From NCBI GenBank assembly GCA_028720145.1, contig JAQYLJ010000067.1:27890-91889 (forward strand): a stretch of DNA of 64,000 nucleotides. Direction: 5' to 3'. The translations under genes were made by a program, and so were the position numbers. A model generated the notes under the pieces. That model was not told where the DNA came from. It did not search any database and saw only the letters and a program-made list of their open reading frames with translations. The stretch comes from Clostridia bacterium (lineage in GTDB: Bacteria; Bacillota; Clostridia; Oscillospirales; CAG-272). Shown here in pieces: positions 1,404 through 49,378 of this stretch; the stretch's first letter is position 1; each line of letters begins with the position of its first letter.

Positions 1404-2246
1404 ATGAGAAAAAATACGCGGGAACTCGTCAATATGCTCGCCGCCGCGGTATTCGTCCTGCTTCTGCTCTTTCTCGCGTGGGGCATCCATGCCTGTCGGA
1501 GCGAGACGGTCGCGCCCACGACCCCTACCCCCGTCGCACCCGCGGGGGAGACCGCCGTCGCGACCGACCCGCGTATCTCCTATGCGCTCCCGCCGCCGCA
1601 GGACGGACCTCTCTTTCTCGTCGCGTCCGACTGCCCGCAGAGCGATACGGAGCTCGCGGCGACCGCCGCCCGTCTCGTCCCCTGTGAGAGCGCGTCGGAC
1701 GAGGACGCGCTGTGGGTCACCCCGGGGGTCTTGATTCGACCCGAAGTGTTACTGCCGCTCGCGCGGCTCGCCCGCGGGTTCCGCACCGCGTTCCCATCGG
1801 GGGCACTCACCGTCACAGGAGGGTTTTGCTCGTCATCGGGTGTTGCCGATTCCACCGGCTTCGCCTTGACGCTCGCCGTGCGGACAGATGAGGGAGATAC
1901 GCCCATGACAGGCGAGACAAGGGAGGGAAAGTGGATGCTCCGACGGGCGGCGGACTACGGCTTCTTCAATTGTGATACCGACAACCCCGGTCGGCTCCTC
2001 TATATCGGGACACCCCATGCGCGTATCATGACCGACCACGGGCTTACGCCCGCCGCATATATCGCGTACATCAAGACCTTTTCGGAGAAGAACCCATTGA
2101 CAGATGCATCGTCCGACGGCACGCGCAAACTCTTTTTCCTCGCGGCGGACGCGGACGGCGCGGTCCTTTGGCTGCTCCCGGGAGTTCGGTTCACCTATAC
2201 CCCGGTCGACGGGGGCTATCTTGTGGTGGTATACGCGCAAAACTAA
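1404..2246 (+). CDS. membrane-anchored VanY/M15-like D,D-carboxypeptidase-fold protein; metal and catalytic motifs appear degenerate
   Basis: GGAGGGG RBS precedes the ATG, and there is an N-terminal TM (LAAAVFVLLLLFLAWGI). The C-terminal region follows the VanY pattern (GKWMLRRAADYGFFN; NPGRLLYIGTPHARIM). The SxHxxGxAxD and EPWH positions read ADSTGFALTL and NPGRLL. Confidence 0.5.
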   Translation: MRKNTRELVNMLAAAVFVLLLLFLAWGIHACRSETVAPTTPTPVAPAGETAVATDPRISYALPPPQDGPLFLVASDCPQSDTELAATAARLVPCESASDEDALWVTPGVLIRPEVLLPLARLARGFRTAFPSGALTVTGGFCSSSGVADSTGFALTLAVRTDEGDTPMTGETREGKWMLRRAADYGFFNCDTDNPGRLLYIGTPHARIMTDHGLTPAAYIAYIKTFSEKNPLTDASSDGTRKLFFLAADADGAVLWLLPGVRFTYTPVDGGYLVVVYAQN

Positions 2247-2480
2247 GTTTGCCCTTTCGGGCAAGTGAAGTTAACTTCGATGTGAAGTTCACTTCGTGAG
2301 TGAAGTTTCGCCGAGCGGCGAAGTGGGGGCAAACTGAACTTCACTGCGCGTGTTTGCGCGCAACTTCACTGTGTACGGCACAACTTCACTTTTGCGGAAG
2401 CAAAAATTTCACGAGCAAAGAAAGAGCAAACATACAAGAATGATTATCCTGTATATTTGCTCTTTCTGTTTTTGCTTCTC
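2247..2480. repeat. composite structured intergenic element, copy 1 (word-and-mini-hairpin array + 12-bp-stem/25-nt-loop hairpin)
   Basis: GTGAAGTT occurs at 2265, 2282 and 2300. AACTTCAC occurs at 2337, 2362 and 2382, with variant AATTTCAC at 2405. Unique perfect mini-hairpins sit between the words (2249-2264, 2307-2322, 2346-2361, 2371-2381, 2391-2404). The main hairpin is AGAAAGAGCAAA(2419-2430)/TTTGCTCTTTCT(2456-2467). Confidence 0.8.
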
Positions 2481-27000: not shown

Positions 27001-27549
27001 ATTCTGTCGGTCGGGTATGACCTCTATGTGAAACTGCTCGAAGAGGCGGTGCTCACCGAACAGGGCAAACCCAAGACCCCTGCGTTTGAATCCAAGATTG
27101 ACCTCAAAGTCGACGCATATCTGCCGGATTCGTATATTCCGTCCTCGGCGCACCGCATGGAACTCTATAAGAAGATTTCTCTCATTGAGACCGAAGAGGA
27201 CAGGGAAGACCTCATCGACGAACTCTGCGACCGCTTCGGCGACCCGCCGAAGCCCGCTCTGAATCTGACCTATGTGGCGCTCTGCCACGCGCTCGCGGTG
27301 AAGTGTCGGATTCTCACCCTGACCCGCAACGAGAAGAACCTGCTGATTCTCGCGGAAAAGCCCGACCCCGATGTCTGGGCGGAACTCTATCATGCCTTCG
27401 ACGGGTTCCGTCCGCCTTCCACGCGCAGTCCCTATCTCACGCTGGGCATGAAGGATTTGAAGAATCCCGCACGCACCGCCGCCGAGATGGTGCGGCTCTA
27501 TTCCGAGACCTACGAAACCCTGCATAAGGAGGTTCCAAATGCCGAATAA
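24022..27549 (+). CDS. mfd: transcription-repair coupling factor
   Basis: 1175 aa with a CarD/TRCF RNAP-interaction domain (GDLVVHEKYGIGRF), DEAD-box helicase motifs (GDVGYGKTEVA, DEEQRFG, TATPIPRT, QLHQIRGRIGRS) and a TRG region. Confidence 0.95.
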   Translation: MKLTRFLFSDPLFAETLEGIRAQREAARPLPILVNGLTGGAEDAFCCEAATALYRECGTPVLFLVPDETRAAQLTACLTSAGVRAHLFRRRPPVYRFYPASHDMERERLFVLRACLSGDAEAVVATSAAALGYLMPKETLAAYSLSLEVGREYPQETLLARLAAFGYTRCDLVEAPGQYARRGGIVDFWQQAGDFPLRMEYFGDEIDRMGYFDPLTQRVTETVSSYTLLPAREVLLDEGAVSRVRASIARMRGRAEGDALELLKREEIALSGDEEFLSRDRFLPLIYPEKNTLFDYFPAKTPVFFMGTNEVTASYKAEWESEREQIERLIVEGVLEEKYAGSLSDEKTFTEILSRAVPVHLNAFGGGSFQKEGGLFGFRCRRLPTYADSPKALLDDLSSYLKLSYTVLLVCETSAEAARLRAYLTDAGYQAVIAPEGLTPENAVPGVVYLLSGWDLSSGYELLTPRLAVLSTLHGNAAASPRRLSQGRKRRFTPGRTILSYLELKPGDLVVHEKYGIGRFTGIETLRQDGVCRDYITIQYAGTDRLFIPADALDAVTKYVGGEDGKVPLSKMGGTAWTKTKSRAKAAAKEMAQELIALYAARMREPGIAFPREEEMETEFAGNFPYELTECQAQALEDIFRDMEKPTPMDRLLCGDVGYGKTEVALRAAFRAIANGKQVAILVPTTILALQHYETAVSRMRGFAVKVDMLSRMRTPREQAAVRRRVARGETDLIIGTHSLLAGSITFKRLGLLIVDEEQRFGVAQKEKIKSFAKDIDVLTLTATPIPRTLNMAVGGIRDLSVLDLAPGDRRPVETYVLEYAEEPIFSAIRKELARAGQVLYLYNRVETIDLVAGRVQKAFPGARVAYAHGQMERGVVEDIWQALVRGEIDILICTTIIETGVDLPNANTLIIEDADRLGLAQLHQIRGRIGRSSRQAYAYLTYRAGKVLTEESRQRLAALREYTEFGAGFRIALRDMEIRGAGNLLGADQHGHILSVGYDLYVKLLEEAVLTEQGKPKTPAFESKIDLKVDAYLPDSYIPSSAHRMELYKKISLIETEEDREDLIDELCDRFGDPPKPALNLTYVALCHALAVKCRILTLTRNEKNLLILAEKPDPDVWAELYHAFDGFRPPSTRSPYLTLGMKDLKNPARTAAEMVRLYSETYETLHKEVPNAE

Positions 27550-28684
27550 ACCGAATGTGAAAAAAGAAAAACAGGCAAAGAAAACAGCAAAGAGTCGCCC
27601 GGTTTTATGGCTCCTCGTTGCCGTATTGGTGGTGGCGGCGATCGCACTCACCATCGTCCTCGGTGTGTCGAGTGCACAGCGGGTTCTGTCGTTCCGCGGC
27701 ATCCGAGTTGACCGCGACCTCTACGCTTATTGGCAAGCGCGCTACCGCTACGAGTATTTGCAGGTGAACGCGCCCGCAGGCGCGTATGATACCGAGGGAT
27801 TCTGGAACTCGGTCATGGACGAGACGACCGGGATGACCTACGGCGAGGACTGCGAGGCGCAGACCCAAACGCGGGTGCTCCGCATCGTGACTGCCGCCTA
27901 TCTGTTCGACACCTCGGGGCTGACTCTGACCGACCCCCAGCGGCAGACCATCGCGGACGGTTTGAACGACTTACTTACCTATCGGTTCGACGGGGATGAA
28001 AAGAAGTTCGACGAAGCGGCGAAACCCTACGGCTTCTCTTTCTCGGATGTGAAAAAGGCGTATCTCTATGAATACAAGGCGGTCAATCTCCCGGGACATA
28101 TCACCCTCTCGGATGAGCAGATTTCCTCGTATTATACGACCCACTACACGAGAGTGCAGTGGCTCTATCTCCCCGCGTCCACGCCCGCCGAGACCATCAC
28201 CCACCTGCGGGGGCAACTCGCGAGCGCGGCGGGCGCGAATGATCGTCTCACGCTGTTCAGCTCGCTTCTAACCGACCCCGAATACAATCAAAACCCCGCA
28301 TACAGTGCCTATTCGGACGGGTACTATTTCTCGACCGACTCAATTTACCTCGACAGTTTCCGTGACGCTTTCACGGAGACCTATCCGTCGACCGACGGGA
28401 AGAAGATTTACGAGGCGGCGTTCTCGCTCGAAAATCCCGGGGATTACACCGAGGTCTCGACCGACGACGGTCTGTGGGTCGTGATGCGCTATCCGCTGAA
28501 TTATGCGTCGATTGCGAACGACACCTATCTCGAATCCATGTTCGCCGACTTAAACGAACTCGCCCTCGCCGATTACCTCGTCTCGTGGCTCGACTCCTTC
28601 GCCCCCGAAGCAAAGTGGAAGACGGGACACGCGAAGACATGGGTCCCGCACGGGCAGAACTCCGACCTCTATCTGTTCTTCTGA
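27539..28684 (+). CDS. membrane-anchored PrsA/SurA-like foldase homologue (parvulin-like domain, probably degenerate)
   Basis: N-terminal TM (VLWLLVAVLVVAAIALTIVL) and a position immediately after mfd. The C-terminal half follows the parvulin layout (VQWLYL ... LFSSLLTDPEYNQ ... DGYYFS ... AAFSLENPGDYTEVSTDDGLWVVMR), but the HIL-type histidine position reads WLY. Confidence 0.45.
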   Translation: MPNKPNVKKEKQAKKTAKSRPVLWLLVAVLVVAAIALTIVLGVSSAQRVLSFRGIRVDRDLYAYWQARYRYEYLQVNAPAGAYDTEGFWNSVMDETTGMTYGEDCEAQTQTRVLRIVTAAYLFDTSGLTLTDPQRQTIADGLNDLLTYRFDGDEKKFDEAAKPYGFSFSDVKKAYLYEYKAVNLPGHITLSDEQISSYYTTHYTRVQWLYLPASTPAETITHLRGQLASAAGANDRLTLFSSLLTDPEYNQNPAYSAYSDGYYFSTDSIYLDSFRDAFTETYPSTDGKKIYEAAFSLENPGDYTEVSTDDGLWVVMRYPLNYASIANDTYLESMFADLNELALADYLVSWLDSFAPEAKWKTGHAKTWVPHGQNSDLYLFF

Positions 28685-28830
28685 TTTTTTGATTGTTTTT
28701 GTTTGCATAGAAAAATCGCCCTCCGCGAATGAGTAATACTCTTTACGGAAAAATTGAAAAACCAACTATGTGCGAGTGCCGCATTTGAAAGGTCAAATGC
28801 AAATTGGGTAAGTACCCCCCTTATATAAGC

Positions 28831-29097
28831 AGAAAGAGCAAGAGTAAAAGGATAAATACCTTCTATTCTTGCTCTGTTCGTTTTGTAATGAATTGATGCT
28901 TACGCATCATGAATTGGCGTGCGCCATGATTTCTCGTCTGCGTACCGCTTCCTCCATGAATTGAATTGCAACCCATGTGCCGAAGGCACAATTCATGCCG
29001 AAGGCAATTCATGAAAGCATTTCTTTCAATTCATGCAACCGTAAGGTTGCAATTCATTGCGTGTTCTCCGTTAAGGATAACACGCGAAACGGAGGGC
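28831..29097. repeat. composite structured intergenic element, copy 2 (inverted orientation relative to copy 1, different word)
   Basis: The main hairpin is AGAAAGAGCAAG(28831-28842)/CTTGCTCTGTTC(28868-28879) with a 25-nt loop containing AGGATAA. ATGAATTG occurs at 28888, 28909 and 28956. CAATTCAT occurs at 28989, 29005, 29027 and 29050. Mini-hairpins separate the words (e.g. GCAACC-gtaa-GGTTGC at 29035-29050). Confidence 0.8.
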
Positions 29098-29123
29098 GTT
29101 CTTTATTGGGTTTTATTCGGTCG

Positions 29124-30215
29124 TCAGTCGAGTTCGGTCACGCGCTCGTAGGAGCCGAGGACTTTCAGACCGCTGCACAGGGTGCCGAGGTCGTCGAGCA
29201 TCGCCTGTCCCGCGGGGGAATTGAGGTTCCCCTCCGCCTCGACGAAGAAGAAGTTGCTCCATATAAGTTTCTTGGTCGGGCGGGAGCGCAGGGAGCGCAT
29301 ATTGAAGCCGTGCTCGCCGATGGAGGCAATCGCGCGGGCGAGGGCACCCGCCTCGTTTCTGACTGTGAAAGTCAGGATGAAACAGCCGTCCTCGCGGCAG
29401 GCGCGGTGCGGATTGCGGGTCATGACCGCGAAACGGGTGGTGTTATTCGCGTTCTCGTTGATATTCGCGGCGAGAATGTGGAGGCGGTAGAGCTCCGCCG
29501 CCTCGGGGGAGCAGATGGCGGCGAGGGTGGGGTCGCCCGTCTCGGAGACTCTGCGCGCCGCGACCGCCGTATTGGATTCCTCTTCGATCTCGTAGCCGCG
29601 GGAGGCGAGATAGGGCGCGCATTGCGAGAGCGCCTGCGGATGGCTGATGACCTTCTTCACCGTGTCGAGGGTCGCACCCTCACAGCCGACGAGACATTGA
29701 TGGATGGGGGCGTCATACACCGCGTTGACATACAGATGCCCGAAGTAGGCGAGGTCCATGACCTGCGCGACATCGCCGGCAAAACTGTTTTCGAGCGGGA
29801 GGACCGCCGAATCACATTCCCCTTTTTCGACCGCCTCATACGCCTCGCGGAACCCGGGATAGGCGACGAGGGTCGCGTCGGGGAAAATCTTTTTCGCCGT
29901 GAGGTGCGCGAACGCGCCGACCACCCCCGCGTATGCTACTCGCTGACCGTCCGCTACCCGATGGTTGAGGCACTCGGACAGCCCGACGACATTCTGTAAA
30001 AACAGCGCGTAATATGAGCGGGTTAAGTCGTCTCCGAGCAGGGGAGACACCTCGCGCAAAGTCTCGTCCGGGTCGATCGCGACCGAGGGAGGGAGCCCCT
30101 CTGCCCGCTGACACGCGGCGACATGACGACCGGCGTTCATGCGCGCTTCAAATGCGAGCGCGAGCGCGCGGTCGGTCTCTTTGACTTGATTGATTGCTTT
30201 TTGCAGTTCGTCCAT
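29124..30215 (-). CDS. pheA: prephenate dehydratase with an N-terminal chorismate-mutase-like domain and a C-terminal ACT domain
   Basis: PDT core (VAYAGVVGAFAHLTA...LPLENSFAGDV...TRFAVM), ACT domain (GALARAIASIGEHGFNMRSLRSRP), and a roughly 85-aa helical N-terminal region resembling AroQ chorismate mutase. Confidence 0.85.
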   Translation of the reverse strand: MDELQKAINQVKETDRALALAFEARMNAGRHVAACQRAEGLPPSVAIDPDETLREVSPLLGDDLTRSYYALFLQNVVGLSECLNHRVADGQRVAYAGVVGAFAHLTAKKIFPDATLVAYPGFREAYEAVEKGECDSAVLPLENSFAGDVAQVMDLAYFGHLYVNAVYDAPIHQCLVGCEGATLDTVKKVISHPQALSQCAPYLASRGYEIEEESNTAVAARRVSETGDPTLAAICSPEAAELYRLHILAANINENANNTTRFAVMTRNPHRACREDGCFILTFTVRNEAGALARAIASIGEHGFNMRSLRSRPTKKLIWSNFFFVEAEGNLNSPAGQAMLDDLGTLCSGLKVLGSYERVTELD

Positions 30216-38359: not shown

Positions 38360-38412
38360 TTGGCAAGAAAGAATTTTATTATATAATTTGTATATACCAA
38401 TAATTTGGTATA
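38360..38412 (+). promoter_or_regulatory. promoter of the LRR lipoprotein gene plus a palindromic operator candidate
   Basis: TTGGCA-16-TATAAT (38360-38387), followed by the perfect palindrome TATACCAA-taat-TTGGTATA (38393-38412). It sits in the divergent region shared with the XRE regulator. Confidence 0.5.
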
Positions 38413-38434
38413 CAATTCAATCTTTTGGAGGATT

Positions 38435-39592
38435 ATGATGAAAAAGAGCATTTTCAGACTGACGACAATTCTATTACTGTGCGCGCTCTGTGCGTTACTT
38501 CTGGCCTTTTCCGGATGCGAGGACGAATCAACGAGTGATTCAAGAATACCAAGCACCTCGGACACATCCGGTACAACGAAAAAACCATCAAATAGCGGAA
38601 GCTCTAATACGGCCGACAAACCATCAAATAGCGGAAGTTCCGATACGACCGACAAACCATCGAACAGCGGAAGTTCCAATACGACCGAGAAACCATCGAA
38701 TGAAGAGTCATCCTTCTTCATCATGACGGGTCAGACATTGTCCGGGCTGACAGATGCGGGGAAAAAGCAAACTTCCATTGTAATACCAAGTAAAATCGAC
38801 GGAGTAACGGTTACGGCAATCGGAAGATCGGTATTTCAATACTGCTATTACTTAACCTCGGTTTCCATTCCGAGTAGTGTGACAAGTATTGGAAACTACG
38901 CGTTTTTTCATTGTGAATCACTAAAATCAATTGCAGTTCCAAGTAGCGTAAAGACGATTGGAGAAGACGCATTTTCTTTTTGTTCGGCAATGACATCAAT
39001 AACATTAGTGAACGGAGTCACCGGTATTGGTGAGAGAGCATTCTCTGGATGCAGCAGTCTGAAATCTGTTACCATTCCCGACAGCGTGACCAACATAGGG
39101 GGGAGTGCTTTTTATGGGTGTACCGCAATCAAGCAGGCAACAATGCCAACGATTGCGATTTCCAGTGTTCCGAAAGATTAATTAGAGACGGTGGTACTGA
39201 ATGGCGGGTCAAGCATCCCCAACTTCGCATTTCAATATTGCAGTACATTGAAATCAGTACAAATCCCCGGCACCGTGACGAGCATCGGCATGTTCGCGTT
39301 TGACTATTGCAAAGGATTGACCTCCGTGACCATTCCCGACAGCGTAACAGAAATCGGTGCACACGCGTTCTTTAATTGTTTCGGTCTCACAAGCGTGAAG
39401 ATCGGAAAAGGCGTGAAGAGTATTGGAGGTTACGCATTTAGCGGTTGTAGCAAATTGACATCCGTAACCTTTGCTAACCCGACTGGATGGAAAGCAGGGG
39501 GTACAGCAATGGATGTCAGTGATCCGGCAAAGGCGGCGGCGTATCTGGTTCCCGGATATCCGTATGGGAGCTATGAATGGACTCGCGGATAA
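38435..39592 (+). pseudogene. BspA-type leucine-rich-repeat (LRR_5-like) lipoprotein gene interrupted by an in-frame TAA at 39179-39181
   Basis: Signal peptide plus lipobox (LLCALCALLLAFSGC), then 3.6 tandem copies of KPSNSGSSNT(A/T)(D/E), then LRR units (SVTSIGNYAFFHCESLKSI...). ORFs 38405-39181 and 39191-39592 are in the same frame. The repeat pattern continues straight across the stop (…ISSVPKD*LETVVLNGGSSIPNFAFQYCSTLKSV…). Confidence 0.7.
38582..38713 (+). repeat. 36-bp coding tandem repeat (about 3.6 copies; KPSNSGSSNTAD units) in the LRR lipoprotein linker
   Basis: The units are 38582-38617, 38618-38653 and 38654-38689, plus a partial fourth. Confidence 0.85.
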
Positions 39593-43170: not shown

Positions 43171-43231
43171 GAGAGGGAATTCTTATCAATTCATGTAATT
43201 CTTATCAATTATCTATTCGGAGGAATGAATC

Positions 43232-46200
43232 ATGATTGCAAAAACAAACGGAAAATGGAAAGGCATCCTCGGCATGACGCTCATGCTCGCCTGCGTGCTA
43301 TGCCTGACCTTGGTATTGGTGTTTCTGGTACCCGGGACGAAGGCGAGCGCGGCTGCGCCTGTCCGACCGGATGGCAGTTTCACCAATATCAGCAATAGTT
43401 ACGACGCTACAAACTATATGAGTAATGTGTACGGCGGCGAGTATAATTACCTATTGACCGAAGACGGTATTCAGATGAATGCCAATATGGTCATAGCAGA
43501 CCACGCTGTCGTCAACCTGTGCCTGAATGGGCATGATTTGAATTTCGCGTCGGGATATAACATTCAAATCATCGACGGCGTTCTGAATATCTTTGACAGC
43601 GGCAGCGTCAAATCGTTATACGGCGTAGATACCGGAGAGGGTACGGGTGAGGGCACCGAGTTGCTTCCCGTGTTTATCAACGGGTATAACGGTACGCTCA
43701 ATGTCGTCGGCAGCACGGTAGATTCGCTGGGCCCCGTTACGGTCGGCATCTACGGCAGCGTCGGCGTATATGGCGGCGGTAAAATTATCAACAGTTCGCT
43801 CGGCGAGTCCGAAAGCCCCACGGTTAGCAAAGGGATTGCAATCAGTCTTTCGTCCGGCGCCGGCAATCTGACTCTTTCGGACGGGGCAACAATCGGCTAT
43901 TTGTGCGGCGGCGGCACGATCAATGCAAACGGCTATGGGGGCACGGTCAATATTCTGCCGCACGGCGTCTCCACTTTCAAAAATATTTCCGCAGAGAATA
44001 TCAATATGATAGACTCCTCCGGCAATTATTTTATGGAAACGAGCGGCGACGACATTGTGATTACAGCCAATGTAACCTATACGGTCGTTCTGAAAAATGC
44101 CAAACTTGACGAGAGATTCTACGAGACTTCTTTGCTCACGGCCGAGGGCTCGGGCGTTGTGATCACCGAAAACGAATATAACGGCTATAATATCGTACAG
44201 TCGTTTAAGGCAGGCACCGGCACATTCAAGGAATTGATCGTAACGGTAAAAGACGGATACCTTCTGCCCGCGTACTTTGAAGAACAGGCAGGGATTGAAG
44301 ACCCGTATGTATTGGCGTCCGGCTATCAGGGTTTGAAGTTGACCCGCAGCGGGAACTCTTTGTATGTCCGTTGCTCGAATTGGACCGGCGATACGGATAT
44401 AACGGTCAGCGTAGCCGGAACCGAACCTGCCGAAGGCGATGTCGTGTGCGACGGTATCAAGTTTACCACGCCCATCAATCAGTCAGGGGCATGCACCCAG
44501 GGCAGTGGATATGCGGGCGATTGGGGTTCTTCTTATACGGGTCCGGACGGTTCGTTTTCGATACTCAACATGTGCGTCACCTCGACAATGAGTCTCTATC
44601 TGGAAGAAGATGTCGTGATGTTTACGCACGGAAGTATCGGTTCGTCCGGCGATTATACGGCAGAGTATCCTCCCGAGAACATCACGGTAGACCTGTATCT
44701 CAACGGGCATACGCTCACACTGTACGGTTCGGGTGGTGACTCGGCAGGTATCACGGTCTATCCCAATGCGTCATTCAATATTTATGACAGCGCAGCCGGA
44801 ACCGGCAAGATCGTTTTGGAATCGCAAGACGATTCGCAGTATGATTCCGGATTGCTTGATAATCTTTGCGTGCTGGCTGTAAAGGGCGGTACGGTCAATC
44901 TGTACGGCGGTACGCTTTCGGGTTATTTTGAAGCGGTACGATTGGAGCCCTCTGCCAAATATACCCAGACCACCTCGCAGGACGAACTGGGGAATACGAT
45001 TACCACCAAAAAATACAGCACGACCACATTCAGAATGTTCGGCGGAGAACTCAACATTAAGTACACGAAGTATGCAGTCAATATCGTAGCGGCGCTGTAT
45101 GCATCGCAGGATATCACCTATGAGGAAAATGTTATACACAATTTCGCCGCGCACGACATTAAGATTTACGGCGACAGCAAACTGACCGGCGTGATTTCGA
45201 CCACGCAAGATACCGACCTCAACTTCGACGCATACGGTTTCACCGGCGATGCGATCAGCATTCGGGCAAACAAGGCAAGAGAAGGCGAAGTGCTTTGCCG
45301 CCATACGACTGCGAATAAAATCAATTTCGTAAACAAGGGCTTCACCGCCATTGACGACGAAGTGAATGAGGGGAATGTCATCGTGAAGCCCGCGATGGAA
45401 ATCAGTCTCATCCCGGACGAGCACAGCGTGTTCTCCAACGGCTCGGAAAGCGGTATCACCTCGTTCGGCGCTTTGCAGGGGAAGACGCTCGCAGAGGCGG
45501 GACTCCAACTCGTAGCCGACGCCGGATATGAGGCGAAAGAGTACATTTATCAGGCGATCATCGTCGGCGTTGCCGCAGGCGACGACTTCACGGTTCTCCT
45601 GCTCAGCGACGGCTCACTCTGGGCTTGCGGCGGGAACGAATTCGGTCAACTCGGCAACAAGTCTTTCGAGGGTTCCTCCGCTTTCATCCCCATGCAGACC
45701 GAAAGCGGCGCGATTAAGGGCGTCTCGGCAGTCTATGCCAAAGGTCAGATGGTAGTTGCGCGCATGAACGATCAATCTACGATGGCTTGCGGCGACAACA
45801 CCTACGGACAACTCGGCGTGAACAGCACCGAAACGAAGGTCAACTACTTTATGCCTATGGTAGATGCCGAAGGAAAAACGCTTTCCAATGTTGTAAATGT
45901 TTACATGGGTGGCAACCACACCTTCGTACAGAATTTCAACTCGGATACGAGGATATATGATCTCTACGCCTGCGGTAAAAACGACCACGGACAATTAGGT
46001 ATCGGCTCGACGGAAGACAAAAACATTTTAATCAAGGTCACCGTGAGCGAAGGTATTACCGATTATTTCAGTGTCGAGTGCGGCGTGGATTTCACCGTCT
46101 TCAATACATATTGGAACCACAGTTTTATTACCTTTATGGCGGGTAACGGTGCTTTCCTCAGTACCCTGAACGGACATATCTATTCGAGCGGGGATTGGAA

Positions 46201-49200
46201 CTATACCGACATCAATTTGCAGATTACCTCGCAAGACTATACCACACCAACCCAGTTATGTGATGATCCCTACCAGCAAGTACGATTCCGTGTTGGCGAC
46301 GGGTTTATACTGGCGTTTGTGTTTGACTCAATGAATGAGTATAAACTTTTGGCGATGGGCGACAACTCCAAGGGGCAGTGCGGTAACTACGGAGGCGGCA
46401 CGATCAATTCGTTCTCGCCTATGAAAGACGCAAACAATAATGATGTTACGGGCGTTCGCGACATCTATATCGGCAAAGATTTCGTCGTCGTCTTCAAGTT
46501 CGACGGCTCGGTATGGGTGTGCGGTAACAACGAAAACGGACAACTCGGTATCAATAGTTCCGAACCCATTGTCTATGTGCTCACGCAGGTCGCGCAAAAC
46601 CTGGACAACTACTCGAAGTGGGCGGTCGGCGGCAGCCACCTCGTCGCGCTCAAAAACGACGGATCGTTCTATGTTACGGGTAGCAACGCGGCAGGTCAGC
46701 TCGGTTTCGATTCTTCTGTCGGAAAGAAGATGGTTCTCACCGAAAGAAAACTCACAGAAGCGCAACTCACCGCCACTTCGCTCGCAGACATTACCGCAGA
46801 CTTCAACATGGATTTGAGGGTGGTAACCGGACTGCTTGAATTCAACATCAACATGAACGCAAACACCGGCGATCCTGCGGACGACAAGGTAGCAAAAACC
46901 CAACTCCATAAACTCTATGTGAAGGATTTGCCCGACCCCGAATGGGACGAGTTCCACACCTTTGTGGGCTGGTTCACGGCGGCAGAGGGTGGCGAAGCGG
47001 TCACCGACCGGACCCTGACCGAAGACATCGAGATCTTCGCGCATTGGACTCTGAACTATAAGATTACTCTTGACGCGCAGGGCGGTTCGACTTCTTCCGC
47101 ATATCTCGTCACGAAGGACGGGAAACTCACGACCCTTCCCAACGCGAAATACGATGCTTCGCATCTGTTCTTCGCCTGGTACACCGAGAAGAACGGCGGC
47201 GGGGAAGAGGTCACGCTCGATACCGTGTTCACCGCGGACACCACGATTTATGCAAGTTACATCACCGTGGGCAAGACGATTGACCGTATCGAAAAGACGA
47301 CCGAAGGACTTGTCGATACCTATACCATCTATTATACCGACGACACGACTTACTCCTTTACCGTCACCAACGGTTCGAGCGGTTCGGGCAGCGGCTCCAG
47401 CGAAGCGCCTTCTATCGGCGAGAACGGCAACTGGTGGATTGGCGAAACCGATACGGGTGTGAGCGCGAGCGGTACGGACGGTGCGGACGGCGCAGACGGG
47501 AAGACCCCGCAACTCCGCATCAATTCCGAGACGAATATGTGGGAAGTCTCCTACAACGAGGGTTCCACTTGGACCTCGCTCGGCGTGAAAGCGACGGGTG
47601 CCGCAGGCGCAGATGGTGCTGACGGCAACAGCATCGAAAAGGTCGAAAAGATCAGTACCGAAGGGCTGGTCGATACATACCGCATCACCTTCACCGACGG
47701 CTCGACCTTCGACTTCACGGTGACGAACGGTGCTGACGGCACGGACGGCACAAACGGCAAGAAACTGGAAATGCAGATCAATGCCGAGACCAACGAGTGG
47801 GAGTACCGCTATGAGGGCGATACCGAATGGACTTCCACCGGCGTGAAAGCGACCGGCGCGAACGGCTCCGACGGTGCAGACGGGAAGACCCCGCAACTCA
47901 AAATCGGCGAGGACAACTACTGGTATGTATCCTATGACGACGGTGCGACCTGGACGAGCCTGAATGTCAAGGCGACAGGCGAAAAGGGTGCGGACGGCAC
48001 GGACGGCGTGACCCCGCAGCTCCGTATCAATTCTTCTACGAACTATTGGGAAGTGTCGTACGATAACGGCACGAGCTGGAACTCTCTCGGCGTGAAGGCG
48101 ACGGGTGAGGGTGCGGGCTCGGGCTCAGGCACCGACGGCATCACTCCCAAACTCCGTGTGAACGCGGAAACCAATGAGTGGGAAGTCTCCTACGACAACG
48201 GCACGACCTGGGAATCCCTCGGCGTGAAAGCGACCGGCTCTGACGGCGCAGACGGTGCCGATGGTGCAGACGGCAAGAAGATTATCATTCGCATTAACCC
48301 GACCACGGGCGAGTGGGAGTATCAGTACGAGGGCGACACCGAATGGACATCTCTCGGTGTGAAAGCCACCGGCGAAAAGGGTGAACAAGGCGAAAAGGGT
48401 GAAGACGGCAGAGGCATCGTCAAGATTGAAAAGACGAGCACAAGCGGTCTCATCGACACTTACACCATCACCTACACCGATGGCACGACTTCGACCTTCA
48501 CTGTGACGAACGGTCAAGGTGGTGCGAACGGCGCAGATGGCGCGGACGGCGAAGACGGTATCACCCCGCACATTGGCGCGAACGGCAACTGGTTCATCGG
48601 TGAAACCGATACCGGTGTCAAGGCGGTCGGTACCAATGGTACCAACGGCGCAGACGGTGCCGATGGTGCAGACGGCAAGAAGATTATCATTCGCATTAAC
48701 CCGACCACGGGCGAGTGGGAGTATCAGTACGAGGGCAACAGCGAATGGACCTCTCTCGGCGTGAAAGCCACCGGCGAAAAGGGTGAACAAGGCGAAAAGG
48801 GTGAACAGGGTGAAAAAGGCGAACAGGGTGAAAAAGGTGAGCAAGGAGAAAAGGGTGATACCGGTGAAAAAGGCGACGCCGGCAGAGGCATCGTTAAGAT
48901 CGAAAAGACCGGCACTCAGGGTCTGATTGACACCTACACCATCACCTACACCGACGGCACGACCACGACCTTCACCGTGACGAACGGTTCCGACGGCGGC
49001 AGCGGCAGTAACGGTGCCTACGGTGGCAACCCCTTCACGGGTTCCAACGGCAACTGGTGGATCGGCTCGACCGATACGGGCGTGAGCGCGGGCGGCGGTG
49101 TCGATGGAGCGACTCCGCAGTTCCGCGTCAATGCCGATACAAAGGAATGGGAAGTGTCGAACGATAACGGCACGACCTGGCTCTCTCTCGGCGTGAAAGT

Positions 49201-49378
49201 CATTGAACAACAGGTCGGGGAGAATGGTGAAAACACCACGCTCGCGACGACCGTCGGCTGTTCCGCGGCACTCGTGGCAGTGGTCATCGCCATCGTCATC
49301 ACCATTCTCGCCATTCGCGATAAGAAACGGATGCAGAAAGTTCTGGACTCCATGAAGAACGGCGAGGATAAAGAATGA
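43232..49378 (+). CDS. giant (2048 aa) mosaic cell-surface protein: signal peptide, beta-helix-like region, RCC1 repeats, Listeria-Bacteroides (Flg_new-like) repeats, collagen-like G-X-Y linkers alternating with three short module types, C-terminal TM anchor
   Basis: GGAGG RBS and signal peptide (LMLACVLCLTLVLVFLV…ASA). Six or seven RCC1 signatures are present (GGNEFGQLG, GDNTYGQLG, GKNDHGQLG, GDNSKGQCG, GNNENGQLG, GSNAAGQLG) at about 45560-46720. Two HxFxGW(F/Y)T…W units lie at about 46955-47260. Repeated modules span 47279-49200. The TM is AALVAVVIAIVITILAI, followed by a basic tail. Confidence 0.9.
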   Translation: MIAKTNGKWKGILGMTLMLACVLCLTLVLVFLVPGTKASAAAPVRPDGSFTNISNSYDATNYMSNVYGGEYNYLLTEDGIQMNANMVIADHAVVNLCLNGHDLNFASGYNIQIIDGVLNIFDSGSVKSLYGVDTGEGTGEGTELLPVFINGYNGTLNVVGSTVDSLGPVTVGIYGSVGVYGGGKIINSSLGESESPTVSKGIAISLSSGAGNLTLSDGATIGYLCGGGTINANGYGGTVNILPHGVSTFKNISAENINMIDSSGNYFMETSGDDIVITANVTYTVVLKNAKLDERFYETSLLTAEGSGVVITENEYNGYNIVQSFKAGTGTFKELIVTVKDGYLLPAYFEEQAGIEDPYVLASGYQGLKLTRSGNSLYVRCSNWTGDTDITVSVAGTEPAEGDVVCDGIKFTTPINQSGACTQGSGYAGDWGSSYTGPDGSFSILNMCVTSTMSLYLEEDVVMFTHGSIGSSGDYTAEYPPENITVDLYLNGHTLTLYGSGGDSAGITVYPNASFNIYDSAAGTGKIVLESQDDSQYDSGLLDNLCVLAVKGGTVNLYGGTLSGYFEAVRLEPSAKYTQTTSQDELGNTITTKKYSTTTFRMFGGELNIKYTKYAVNIVAALYASQDITYEENVIHNFAAHDIKIYGDSKLTGVISTTQDTDLNFDAYGFTGDAISIRANKAREGEVLCRHTTANKINFVNKGFTAIDDEVNEGNVIVKPAMEISLIPDEHSVFSNGSESGITSFGALQGKTLAEAGLQLVADAGYEAKEYIYQAIIVGVAAGDDFTVLLLSDGSLWACGGNEFGQLGNKSFEGSSAFIPMQTESGAIKGVSAVYAKGQMVVARMNDQSTMACGDNTYGQLGVNSTETKVNYFMPMVDAEGKTLSNVVNVYMGGNHTFVQNFNSDTRIYDLYACGKNDHGQLGIGSTEDKNILIKVTVSEGITDYFSVECGVDFTVFNTYWNHSFITFMAGNGAFLSTLNGHIYSSGDWNYTDINLQITSQDYTTPTQLCDDPYQQVRFRVGDGFILAFVFDSMNEYKLLAMGDNSKGQCGNYGGGTINSFSPMKDANNNDVTGVRDIYIGKDFVVVFKFDGSVWVCGNNENGQLGINSSEPIVYVLTQVAQNLDNYSKWAVGGSHLVALKNDGSFYVTGSNAAGQLGFDSSVGKKMVLTERKLTEAQLTATSLADITADFNMDLRVVTGLLEFNINMNANTGDPADDKVAKTQLHKLYVKDLPDPEWDEFHTFVGWFTAAEGGEAVTDRTLTEDIEIFAHWTLNYKITLDAQGGSTSSAYLVTKDGKLTTLPNAKYDASHLFFAWYTEKNGGGEEVTLDTVFTADTTIYASYITVGKTIDRIEKTTEGLVDTYTIYYTDDTTYSFTVTNGSSGSGSGSSEAPSIGENGNWWIGETDTGVSASGTDGADGADGKTPQLRINSETNMWEVSYNEGSTWTSLGVKATGAAGADGADGNSIEKVEKISTEGLVDTYRITFTDGSTFDFTVTNGADGTDGTNGKKLEMQINAETNEWEYRYEGDTEWTSTGVKATGANGSDGADGKTPQLKIGEDNYWYVSYDDGATWTSLNVKATGEKGADGTDGVTPQLRINSSTNYWEVSYDNGTSWNSLGVKATGEGAGSGSGTDGITPKLRVNAETNEWEVSYDNGTTWESLGVKATGSDGADGADGADGKKIIIRINPTTGEWEYQYEGDTEWTSLGVKATGEKGEQGEKGEDGRGIVKIEKTSTSGLIDTYTITYTDGTTSTFTVTNGQGGANGADGADGEDGITPHIGANGNWFIGETDTGVKAVGTNGTNGADGADGADGKKIIIRINPTTGEWEYQYEGNSEWTSLGVKATGEKGEQGEKGEQGEKGEQGEKGEQGEKGDTGEKGDAGRGIVKIEKTGTQGLIDTYTITYTDGTTTTFTVTNGSDGGSGSNGAYGGNPFTGSNGNWWIGSTDTGVSAGGGVDGATPQFRVNADTKEWEVSNDNGTTWLSLGVKVIEQQVGENGENTTLATTVGCSAALVAVVIAIVITILAIRDKKRMQKVLDSMKNGEDKE
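48773..48889 (+). repeat. collagen-like G-X-Y tract (13 triplets, mostly GEK/GEQ; 18-bp tandem unit) inside the giant gene
   Basis: GEKGEQGEKGEQGEKGEQGEKGEQGEKGDTGEKGDAGRG. The paralogous position at about 48371-48415 has only 5 triplets. Confidence 0.9.

Follow-up and report, generated by a model that had tools for sequence, protein, structure and literature searches.

The DNA analysed here is a 64,000-nt stretch of the genome of a Clostridia bacterium (assembly GCA_028720145.1, contig JAQYLJ010000067.1, positions 27,890 to 91,889), referred to below as the window. Its subject is a relatively AT-rich spacer of 439 nt (28685-29123) that separates two convergent open reading frames (ORFs) and holds an array of short repeated words and small hairpins. 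The ORF on the plus strand, 27539..28684(+), is a 381-aa gene, and the opposite one, 29124..30215(-), carries a prephenate dehydratase domain (PF00800). An initial annotation, made from the letters alone, described the array as copy 2 of a family whose copy 1 also lies in the window, and the convergent gene context and the word counts given there agree with the coordinates. The word, (C/A)ATGAATTG, occurs on the plus strand at 28887, 28908 and 28955, with a conserved degenerate copy, CATGATTTC, at 28925-28933, and on the minus strand at 28989, 29005, 29027 and 29050; three words (plus the degenerate one) are followed by four complements, all inside 172 nt. Only one other exact (C/A)ATGAATTG copy is present in the 64 kb, at 43187, and the 172 nt contain five of the window's six exact CATGAATTG matches (7 of 13 with one mismatch allowed). 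Scanning the window for 7-mers that occur at least five times together with their complement within 300 nt returned the '+++----' layout at two loci only, 2264-2384 (copy 1) and 28888-29051, the third match being a coding tandem repeat. Mini-hairpins (ATGCttacGCAT, GCAACCgtaaGGTTGC and a shorter GCCgaaGGC type) are present between the words, and the whole spacer has a far more stable fold than shuffled sequence, with z = -6.9 on the plus strand and -9.4 on the minus strand. Given the word counts, the layout scan, the hairpins and the fold z-scores, the feature is real and well beyond chance.

Two kinds of allele exist among contigs that code for exactly the same prephenate dehydratase protein, one with a spacer of 80-83 nt (L002 and L003) and the other with the 439-nt spacer of the window. 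The short spacer contains a single hairpin, CGCCCTCCG-tttcg-CGGAGG(a)CG, with an A-tract before it and a T-run after it, which by its sequence is an ordinary bidirectional intrinsic terminator. In L002 and L003 its halves adjoin each other; in the window, 364 nt separate them. Alignment of the filled and empty alleles places the difference at exactly 28730-29082 (353 bp) plus a second CGCGAA, a 6-bp direct repeat that is found at 28724-28729 and 29083-29088 when the site is filled and as a single copy when it is empty. The filled state, with the same left junction, recurs in independent samples (L117-L120), which gives a presence/absence polymorphism with an intact empty site at one locus (L002 and L003 empty; the window and L117-L120 filled). 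Many metagenome contigs (L004-L010) end within the element, which a repeat or a polymorphic site would lead one to expect. The same alignment disposes of one large RNA closed by a long-range helix between 28711-28725 and 29090-29104, as the helix predicted from the window is the split host terminator stem. The two-stem pseudoknot proposed earlier for the right end is not supported either: its GCGTGTT/AACACGC stem is real, but in the second stem, CTCCGT/ACGGAG, the arm ACGGAG (29089-29094) belongs to the host terminator, and the flank differs in every other copy. The initial limits of the array, 28779-29097, covered most of the insertion at 28730-29082, but omitted its first ~50 nt and included host sequence at the right end; the splitting of a terminator hairpin and the relation to Gut-1 described below had not been noticed.

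From left to right on the plus strand, the locus starts with the 5' half of the split bidirectional terminator (28711-28725), an A-tract with the stem CGCCCTCCG at 28717-28725, which pairs with 29090-29104, and continues with the left CGCGAA (28724-28729), a putative target-site duplication. The 353-bp element itself (28730-29082), assigned to class A by its word ATGAATTG and matched by full-length homologues elsewhere, opens with a left terminal repeat (28730-28756) that is degenerate here (TGAGTAATACTCTTTACGGAAAAATTG) relative to the family consensus (GC)GTGATGTTCTTAGCGGAGAATTTG of the class A alignment and resembles the inverted right end. It is followed by a 5' module (28757-28830) with a hairpin, GCATTTGAaaggTCAAATGC, at 28781-28800, kept in classes A, B and C, and by the terminator-like hairpin H (28831-28875) with its T-rich tail, together 28831-28885, whose loop motif is AGGATAA. 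The word half-array (28887-28963) comprises W1 (28887-28895), W2 (28908-28916), the degenerate W3 (28925-28933) and W4 (28955-28963), with hairpins between them. In the central segment (28964-28988), AATTGCAACC pairs with 29045-29054 and a hairpin, TGTGCCgaaGGCACA, reaches 2 nt into the first anti-word; the pairing arms extend over 28955-28973 and 29045-29063, and the same design is found in classes B and C. The anti-word half-array (28989-29058) repeats CAATTCAT(G/T) at 28989, 29005, 29027 and 29050, again with hairpins between, and the element closes with the terminal hairpin T, or right terminal repeat, GCGTGTTCTCCGTTAAGGATAACACGC (29059-29085), which is unique in the window and kept in classes A, B and C. 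The right CGCGAA (29083-29088) and the 3' half of the terminator (29090-29117), with the stem CGGAGGGCG at 29090-29098 and a T-rich tail, complete the locus. The order of modules in the family is the left terminal repeat (GC)GTGATGTTCTTAGCGGAGAA, 5' module, H with T-rich tail, word half-array, central segment, anti-word half-array and T GCGTGTTCTCCGTTAAGGATAACACGC.

The element has no conserved ORF. Small ORFs in the words were considered, as ATG-AAT-TGA lies inside the class A word, and were rejected since the words of other classes contain no ATG; a reading of TTATCC as part of a DnaA box was likewise rejected, the CACA part of the box being missing. At gathering thresholds Rfam returned nothing in the window, and no tRNA or tmRNA genes were found there.

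Hairpin H is common to copies 1 and 2, and a pattern derived from it, AAAGAGCAA-N-AGGATAA-N-TTGCTCT, was used to search bacterial and archaeal genomes, one genome per species. It retrieved 103 genome stretches against ~2.5 expected by chance according to our estimate, and in more than half of them a word array and then an anti-word array begin 55-60 nt from the start of the hairpin. This bears out the proposal of a single family in which copies 1 and 2 have the same architecture but differ in word and are oppositely oriented. The hosts are nearly all metagenome-assembled genomes (MAGs) of uncultured gut Clostridia from ruminant and human samples, labelled Christensenellaceae, Oscillospiraceae, 'Eubacteriales' or Ruminococcus, and several MAGs hold 2-4 copies each. 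Full-length members are ~350 nt long and conserved throughout, with dozens of copies whose unrelated flanks mark non-orthologous sites; 14 aligned class A copies have a mean column identity of 83% and unrelated flanks. Truncated and decayed copies also occur. The element was absent from the plasmid, phage and viral collections searched.

Words do differ between copies, as had been suggested, but they are not free to vary from copy to copy and fall into a few discrete classes. Class A, with the word (C)ATGAATTG, is represented by ~26 loci including copy 2, class B (TCGATAT(G)) by ~20 loci and class C (AGTGAAGTT) by 7 loci including copy 1; class D has the word TGAAAT, and a GTGATAT class was found only beside a T hairpin in the metagenome contig L140. 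Classes A, B and C have the left repeat, 5' module, H and T in common and differ in their arrays, and class D has the same backbone. A further word, CGTTATGAG, occurs about four times with hairpins between in L016, ~120 nt upstream of H on the reverse strand, so that word diversity exceeds the classes counted. Two loci, L106 (reverse strand, ~2560-2800) and L074, begin with T and a class B fragment and go on with another T, a word-only array of class D that is a genuine Gut-1 match at 71.7 bits, the hairpin GGGGAGGATATCATCCTCCCC, H and a full array, the last being class A in L106 and class B-like in L074; such mosaics indicate that modules are shuffled between elements.

Copy 1 (2247-2468, minus strand) is a truncated class C element with the word GTGAAGTT, which retains H (2419-2468) and the arrays and has neither the 5' module nor T. 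It is opposite in orientation to copy 2. The stop codon (2244-2246) of the neighbouring ORF 1404..2246 lies inside a sequence conserved in class C elements (AACTAAGTTTGCCC), and copy 1 appears to supply the end of this reading frame. No empty site is available for copy 1, for which a single contig is known, in the same state as the window.

The H hairpin, with arms AGAAAGAGCAAG and CTTGCTCT, is real as initially annotated, but its loop is not of 25 nt: the stem is 17 nt long with 88% complementarity (28835-28851 and 28859-28875) and encloses a loop of 7 nt. The sequence AAGGATAA is found at 28848 and again at 29073. About half of the H-pattern matches (~49 loci among L011-L113, e.g. L019:4823-4864, L054, L090 and L103) are solo copies of H, located 5-20 nt past stop codons and followed by T5-7, with a sequence conserved in many species. 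These solo copies look like intrinsic terminators, and H itself may be dispersed as a unit or be what is left of deleted elements.

The element has terminal inverted repeats, ~18 of 22 positions being shared by the consensus left end, GCGTGATGTTCTTAGCGGAGAA, and the right end when inverted, GCGTGTTATCCTTAACGGAGAA, and the GCGTGTT/AACACGC arms of T (29059-29085) are kept across the family. An exact 27-mer scan for T in metagenomes gave 20 loci, 16 of which adjoin word and anti-word arrays, the other four being too truncated or unclear; none of the 20 matches flanks an ORF. T exists in two orientations, with the segment between perfect GCGTGTT/AACACGC arms inverted in 6 of ~39 copies (L014, L037, L049, L085, L097 and L107, reading ...TTATCCTTAACGGAGAAC... 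instead of ...TTCTCCGTTAAGGATAAC...), which looks like flip/flop inversion or recombination between left and right ends. A solo T-type hairpin, GCGTGATACTCTTAACGGAGTATCACGC, stands at ~2190-2245 in L024 with no arrays or H near it, and may be a footprint of excision or recombination. In L117 (3040-3103), a second class A word array starts past a variant T hairpin, owing either to a tandem element or to misassembly at the repeat.

The location inside a terminator is not peculiar to the window. In 20 of 25 full-length copies, the 40 nt to the left and to the right of the element pair as a nested stem of 7 bp or more without interruption (mean 10.6), compared with 9.9% of 1000 control positions (mean 4.6). 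Each locus has its own stem sequence, which usually continues into an A-tract on the left side and into a T-tract on the right side. The distance from the element to the ends of neighbouring ORFs is 15-60 nt, and among the 20 classifiable cases these ORFs are convergent in 11 and divergent in one. Short junction repeats of ~4 bp were found at other loci, namely ATAA(GG) in L032, CAAG in L065 and TATG in L029. Colonisation, on this analysis, need not destroy a terminator.

For the arrays, what is conserved is the word and the presence of a hairpin rather than a fixed spacing. Inter-word segments across the family have a mean folding energy of -3.95 kcal/mol, against -1.54 kcal/mol for shuffled sequence (159 distinct segments), and the shortest mini-hairpins are unstable by themselves. 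The mini-hairpins noted initially exist, and those that appear unique inside one copy are kept slot by slot among same-class copies from other genomes; in the sub-variant represented by L033, L085 and L098, other hairpins occupy the same slots and the words are unchanged. Inter-word spacing is irregular (9 to 45 nt), some copies hold extra hairpins nested in hairpin loops, and the loops are biased towards UNNC next to words and GNNA next to anti-words. The irregular spacing, nested hairpins, hairpin-for-hairpin replacement and loop bias argue that the arrays act single-stranded rather than as phased duplex sites. Every class has a pairing, competing with a local hairpin, between the fourth word plus its extension and the sequence that extends the last anti-word, and in class A the outer word pair departs from the inner pairs in a matching manner (AATGAATTG with CAATTCATT). 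Double changes detected by RNAalifold affect 7 of 98 pairs in class A and 6 of 41 in class B. Kissing between UNNC and GNNA loops was rejected, since the loops are complementary in the window (UUAC and GUAA) but not elsewhere in class A (TGAC with GTAA or GCGA). Assignment of a strand from the loop types was also abandoned because the grammar is symmetric under reverse complement, and the class A counts of ~21 G.U against 13 A.C are not decisive for strand. Elsewhere in the window, the only other exact CATGAATTG is held by direct repeats of AATTCTTATCAATT at 43178-43210, just upstream of the start of a 2048-aa ORF, and these repeats may form an operator-like site.

At relaxed thresholds, the only meaningful likeness in Rfam is to Gut-1 (RF01706), a motif of consecutive short hairpins split by a repeated (G/A)UGAAnU-type word and likewise found in gut bacteria. 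Copy 2 scores 29.3 bits (28969-29059, minus strand) and copy 1 scores 38.4 bits on the plus and 25.1 bits on the minus strand, all below the gathering score of 50 bits, as the words differ from those of the model (ATGAATTG in copy 2 and GTGAAGTT in copy 1). In the cmscan alignment of copy 2, all three hairpins of the model are covered and the words are aligned to AUGAAUUG, i.e. both the hairpin series and the intervening word are recovered. The threshold is exceeded by sibling arrays joined to H and T modules like those described here (71.7 bits in each of L074 and L106, 54.8 in L074 and 53.4 in L132). The window copies are thus best classified as word-variants of the Gut-1 grammar and, by the curated score, not as members of the Rfam family.

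Gut-1 was described in 2010 as a probable non-coding RNA known from human gut metagenomes only, and it is rated there as certainly RNA, non-coding and not cis-regulatory, with no function assigned and no cultured host reported (Weinberg et al. 2010, PMC2864571). The published 77-nt motif spans one half-array only, and in the text read of the paper and supplement the anti-word half, H and T, insertion into a terminator loop and presence/absence among strains are not described (PMC2864571). The flanks in its original Stockholm alignment contain a terminator, word array and anti-word array in the same order (PMC2864571). One sequence of that alignment, BAAZ01000095, has a terminator hairpin, three copies of GUGAUAUU and four of AAUAUCAC, between convergent genes and within an enclosing long-range stem. 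A full-text literature search gave no paper on Gut-1 beyond the 2010 description.

The region is probably one copy of a dispersed, non-coding mosaic repeat of ~350 bp in uncultured gut Clostridia, non-autonomous and mobile in the manner of a miniature inverted-repeat transposable element (MITE), which targets terminator loops and has a Gut-1-type array as its core. This explanation builds on the insertion polymorphism, the terminator-loop location, the dispersal, the modularity and the conservation of hairpins as structure, all of which are observed. It is plausible that the element is served by an enzyme acting in trans, which would recognise its terminal repeats and, making a short staggered cut, insert it into hairpin loops that are extruded or single-stranded. 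The H hairpin in the middle of the element would then replace the split terminator, so that transcription from either convergent gene would still stop. One neighbouring gene would gain T, the arrays and H as a structured 3' untranslated region (UTR) of ~250 nt, and the opposite gene would meet H almost at once; in both window copies the order of stop codon, arrays and H is present for one neighbour, namely the prephenate dehydratase gene (minus strand) for copy 2 and ORF 1404..2246 (plus strand) for copy 1. In RNA or in single-stranded DNA, the mini-hairpins would fold out and bring the words side by side, and the exposed words might either pair with the anti-words as a side-branched rod or be read by one word-recognising factor.

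Several observations count against this explanation or parts of it. There is a single filled/empty pair, which, taken by itself, could equally come from a precise deletion between 6-bp microhomologies; a clear junction duplication is seen in few copies (6 bp in the window; L032, L065 and L029), with varying length, and many copies show none. No mobilising gene or transposase with matching ends was found in ~0.7 Mb of loci or at the 20 metagenome T matches. The T-run of H in the window is offset by 5 nt (CTCTGTTCGTTTTG), owing to which H was not called by a consensus terminator scan. No promoter-like site is present in or beside either window copy, so any transcription of the arrays would be by read-through from outside and can only be inferred. 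Three class A copies have an uncompensated G-to-A change in W4, which argues against strict pairing of W4 with the first anti-word; covariation within classes is weak, the copies being ~83% identical; and word/anti-word pairing alone does not explain the identity of all 7-8 words in each element.

This last point leads to a broader reading, which we put forward only tentatively. Gut-1-type arrays may be the cargo of undescribed mobile elements that target intrinsic-terminator loops and bring their own replacement terminator, and the 7-9-nt word, the same at 7-8 sites and changed in concert between classes, may be a code for a cognate factor acting in trans, either protein or RNA. If true, the word code would be a new recognition system and the element more than a folded spacer.

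Another explanation, which we regard as unlikely, is that the region is a structured small RNA gene of the Gut-1 class with a cellular role, such as titration of an RNA-binding protein by the single-stranded words, the mobility and the terminator site being secondary. It would agree with the rating of Gut-1 as a certain non-coding RNA in the original description (PMC2864571), and with the sibling arrays that score above the Rfam threshold. The invariance of the words beside variable loops and hairpins exchanged for hairpins would suit it as well, as would loop classes typical of stable RNA loops, and the word-only array between T and H in L074 and L106 resembles a small transcription unit ending at a terminator. 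However, no promoter-like site is seen in or beside the element, and strains with an identical neighbouring protein dispense with the element altogether. Decayed and truncated copies are common, the several word classes per genome (A and C in the window) would demand several partner proteins, and the anti-word array would sequester the words.

A less probable alternative is that the words are duplex DNA sites for a sequence-specific protein, arranged in two opposed sets as in transposon-end repeats, iterons or plasmid centromeres, with incidental hairpins. Every class has the same 7-9-bp site three to five times in one direction and three to four times in the other; all sites of an element change together between classes, as with a co-evolving cognate protein, and the words vary a single theme (anti-words ATTTCAC, ATATCAC, ACTTCAC, AATTCAT and ATATCGA). 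Cooperative binding to duplex DNA normally needs helical phasing, however, and here the sites are spaced irregularly by 9-45 bp, with spacing altered by inserted hairpins, and the spacers are kept as hairpins rather than as sequence. The terminal repeats are moreover common to all classes, and one enzyme acting on the ends would suffice for mobilisation without any words.

More doubtful still is mobilisation in the form of single-stranded DNA, for which an HUH/Y1-type enzyme (IS200/IS605 TnpA-like or REP-associated) would recognise hairpins such as T and insert the element, at the replication fork, into loops of single-stranded DNA. In its favour, the targeted hairpin loops become single-stranded on extrusion, the hairpin that forms the terminal module is found in both orientations, a solo T hairpin exists in L024, and the element consists almost wholly of hairpins. 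Against this, transposons of the IS200/IS605 type are not known to duplicate their target, and a 6-bp duplication is seen here; no tnpA-like gene was seen nearby, and the element ends in inverted repeats, where that family typically has a left and a right hairpin that are asymmetric. The idea that the likeness of copies 1 and 2 is a low-complexity coincidence between unrelated AT-rich spacers, named at the outset as what would refute the family, has nothing to recommend it except the lower G+C content of the spacer and can practically be dismissed, as it is contradicted by the clustering of words in 172 nt, the restriction of the layout to two loci of the window, and full-length homologues of ~83% mean column identity in many genomes.

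The favoured explanation, a MITE-like element in terminator loops, can be set beside known systems. Bacterial MITEs include the Correia elements, RUP and bcr1. The present element resembles them in being small, non-coding, multi-copy and dispersed (353 bp, dozens of copies), with terminal inverted repeats, a short direct repeat at the junction of some copies, presence or absence among strains and decayed copies; it differs in that no parent insertion sequence is known here, in an interior made of conserved, modular, structured arrays with interchangeable word classes and no transposase remnant, and in a target defined by structure (the terminator loop) instead of sequence. The repetitive extragenic palindromic (REP) sequences and bacterial interspersed mosaic elements (BIMEs) of enterobacteria and the BOX elements of pneumococcus are likewise mosaics of extragenic hairpin units with alternating orientation and variable unit number, often between convergent genes or in 3' UTRs, although no sequence relationship was noted. 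REP and BIME units are defined by a conserved palindrome of ~35 nt and an association with REP-associated tyrosine transposases (RAYTs). REP sequences keep the palindrome itself, whereas our element keeps a single-stranded word and its hairpins vary by unit; no association with a RAYT-like gene was seen at the element loci, where no systematic RAYT search was made.

Among autonomous elements, IS1397 inserts into the loops of REP sequences and encodes a transposase. A precedent for structure-directed targeting of terminators is provided by IS1272/TnSha1 of the IS1182 family, which inserts at terminator hairpins with no primary-sequence specificity, cutting in the stem and deleting part of the target without duplication (Furi et al. 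2016, PMC4923244). The element described here shares with IS1272 the integration into hairpin-forming terminators and the absence of primary-sequence specificity, but it leaves the hairpin whole, lies in the loop and shows short duplications, and IS1272 encodes its transposase. The components each have known relatives, in Gut-1, in MITEs and BIME-like mosaics, and in terminator-targeting transposons; of the combination, and of a link of Gut-1 to a mobile element resident in terminators, no description was found.

Two other repeats in the window concern coding sequence. A 36-bp tandem repeat (3.3 copies) at 38582-38701 in ORF 38405..39181 encodes a KPSNSGSS-type linker and is ordinary coding sequence. 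Repeats of 9 and 27 bp (GAAAAGGGT) at 48776-48876 lie in the 2048-aa ORF, 43232..49378, and would encode Gly-X-Y-like repeats in a large putative surface protein.

For Gut-1, the arrays are now placed within a defined mosaic of ~350 bp, with boundaries, a filled/empty pair, a structural target, host genomes and interchangeable word classes. An unexplained motif is turned into testable questions about whether the element moves, what moves it, whether H terminates transcription and what reads the words. For the annotation of gut Clostridia genomes, the element explains recurrent contig breaks and the long, AT-rich, structured spacers between convergent genes.

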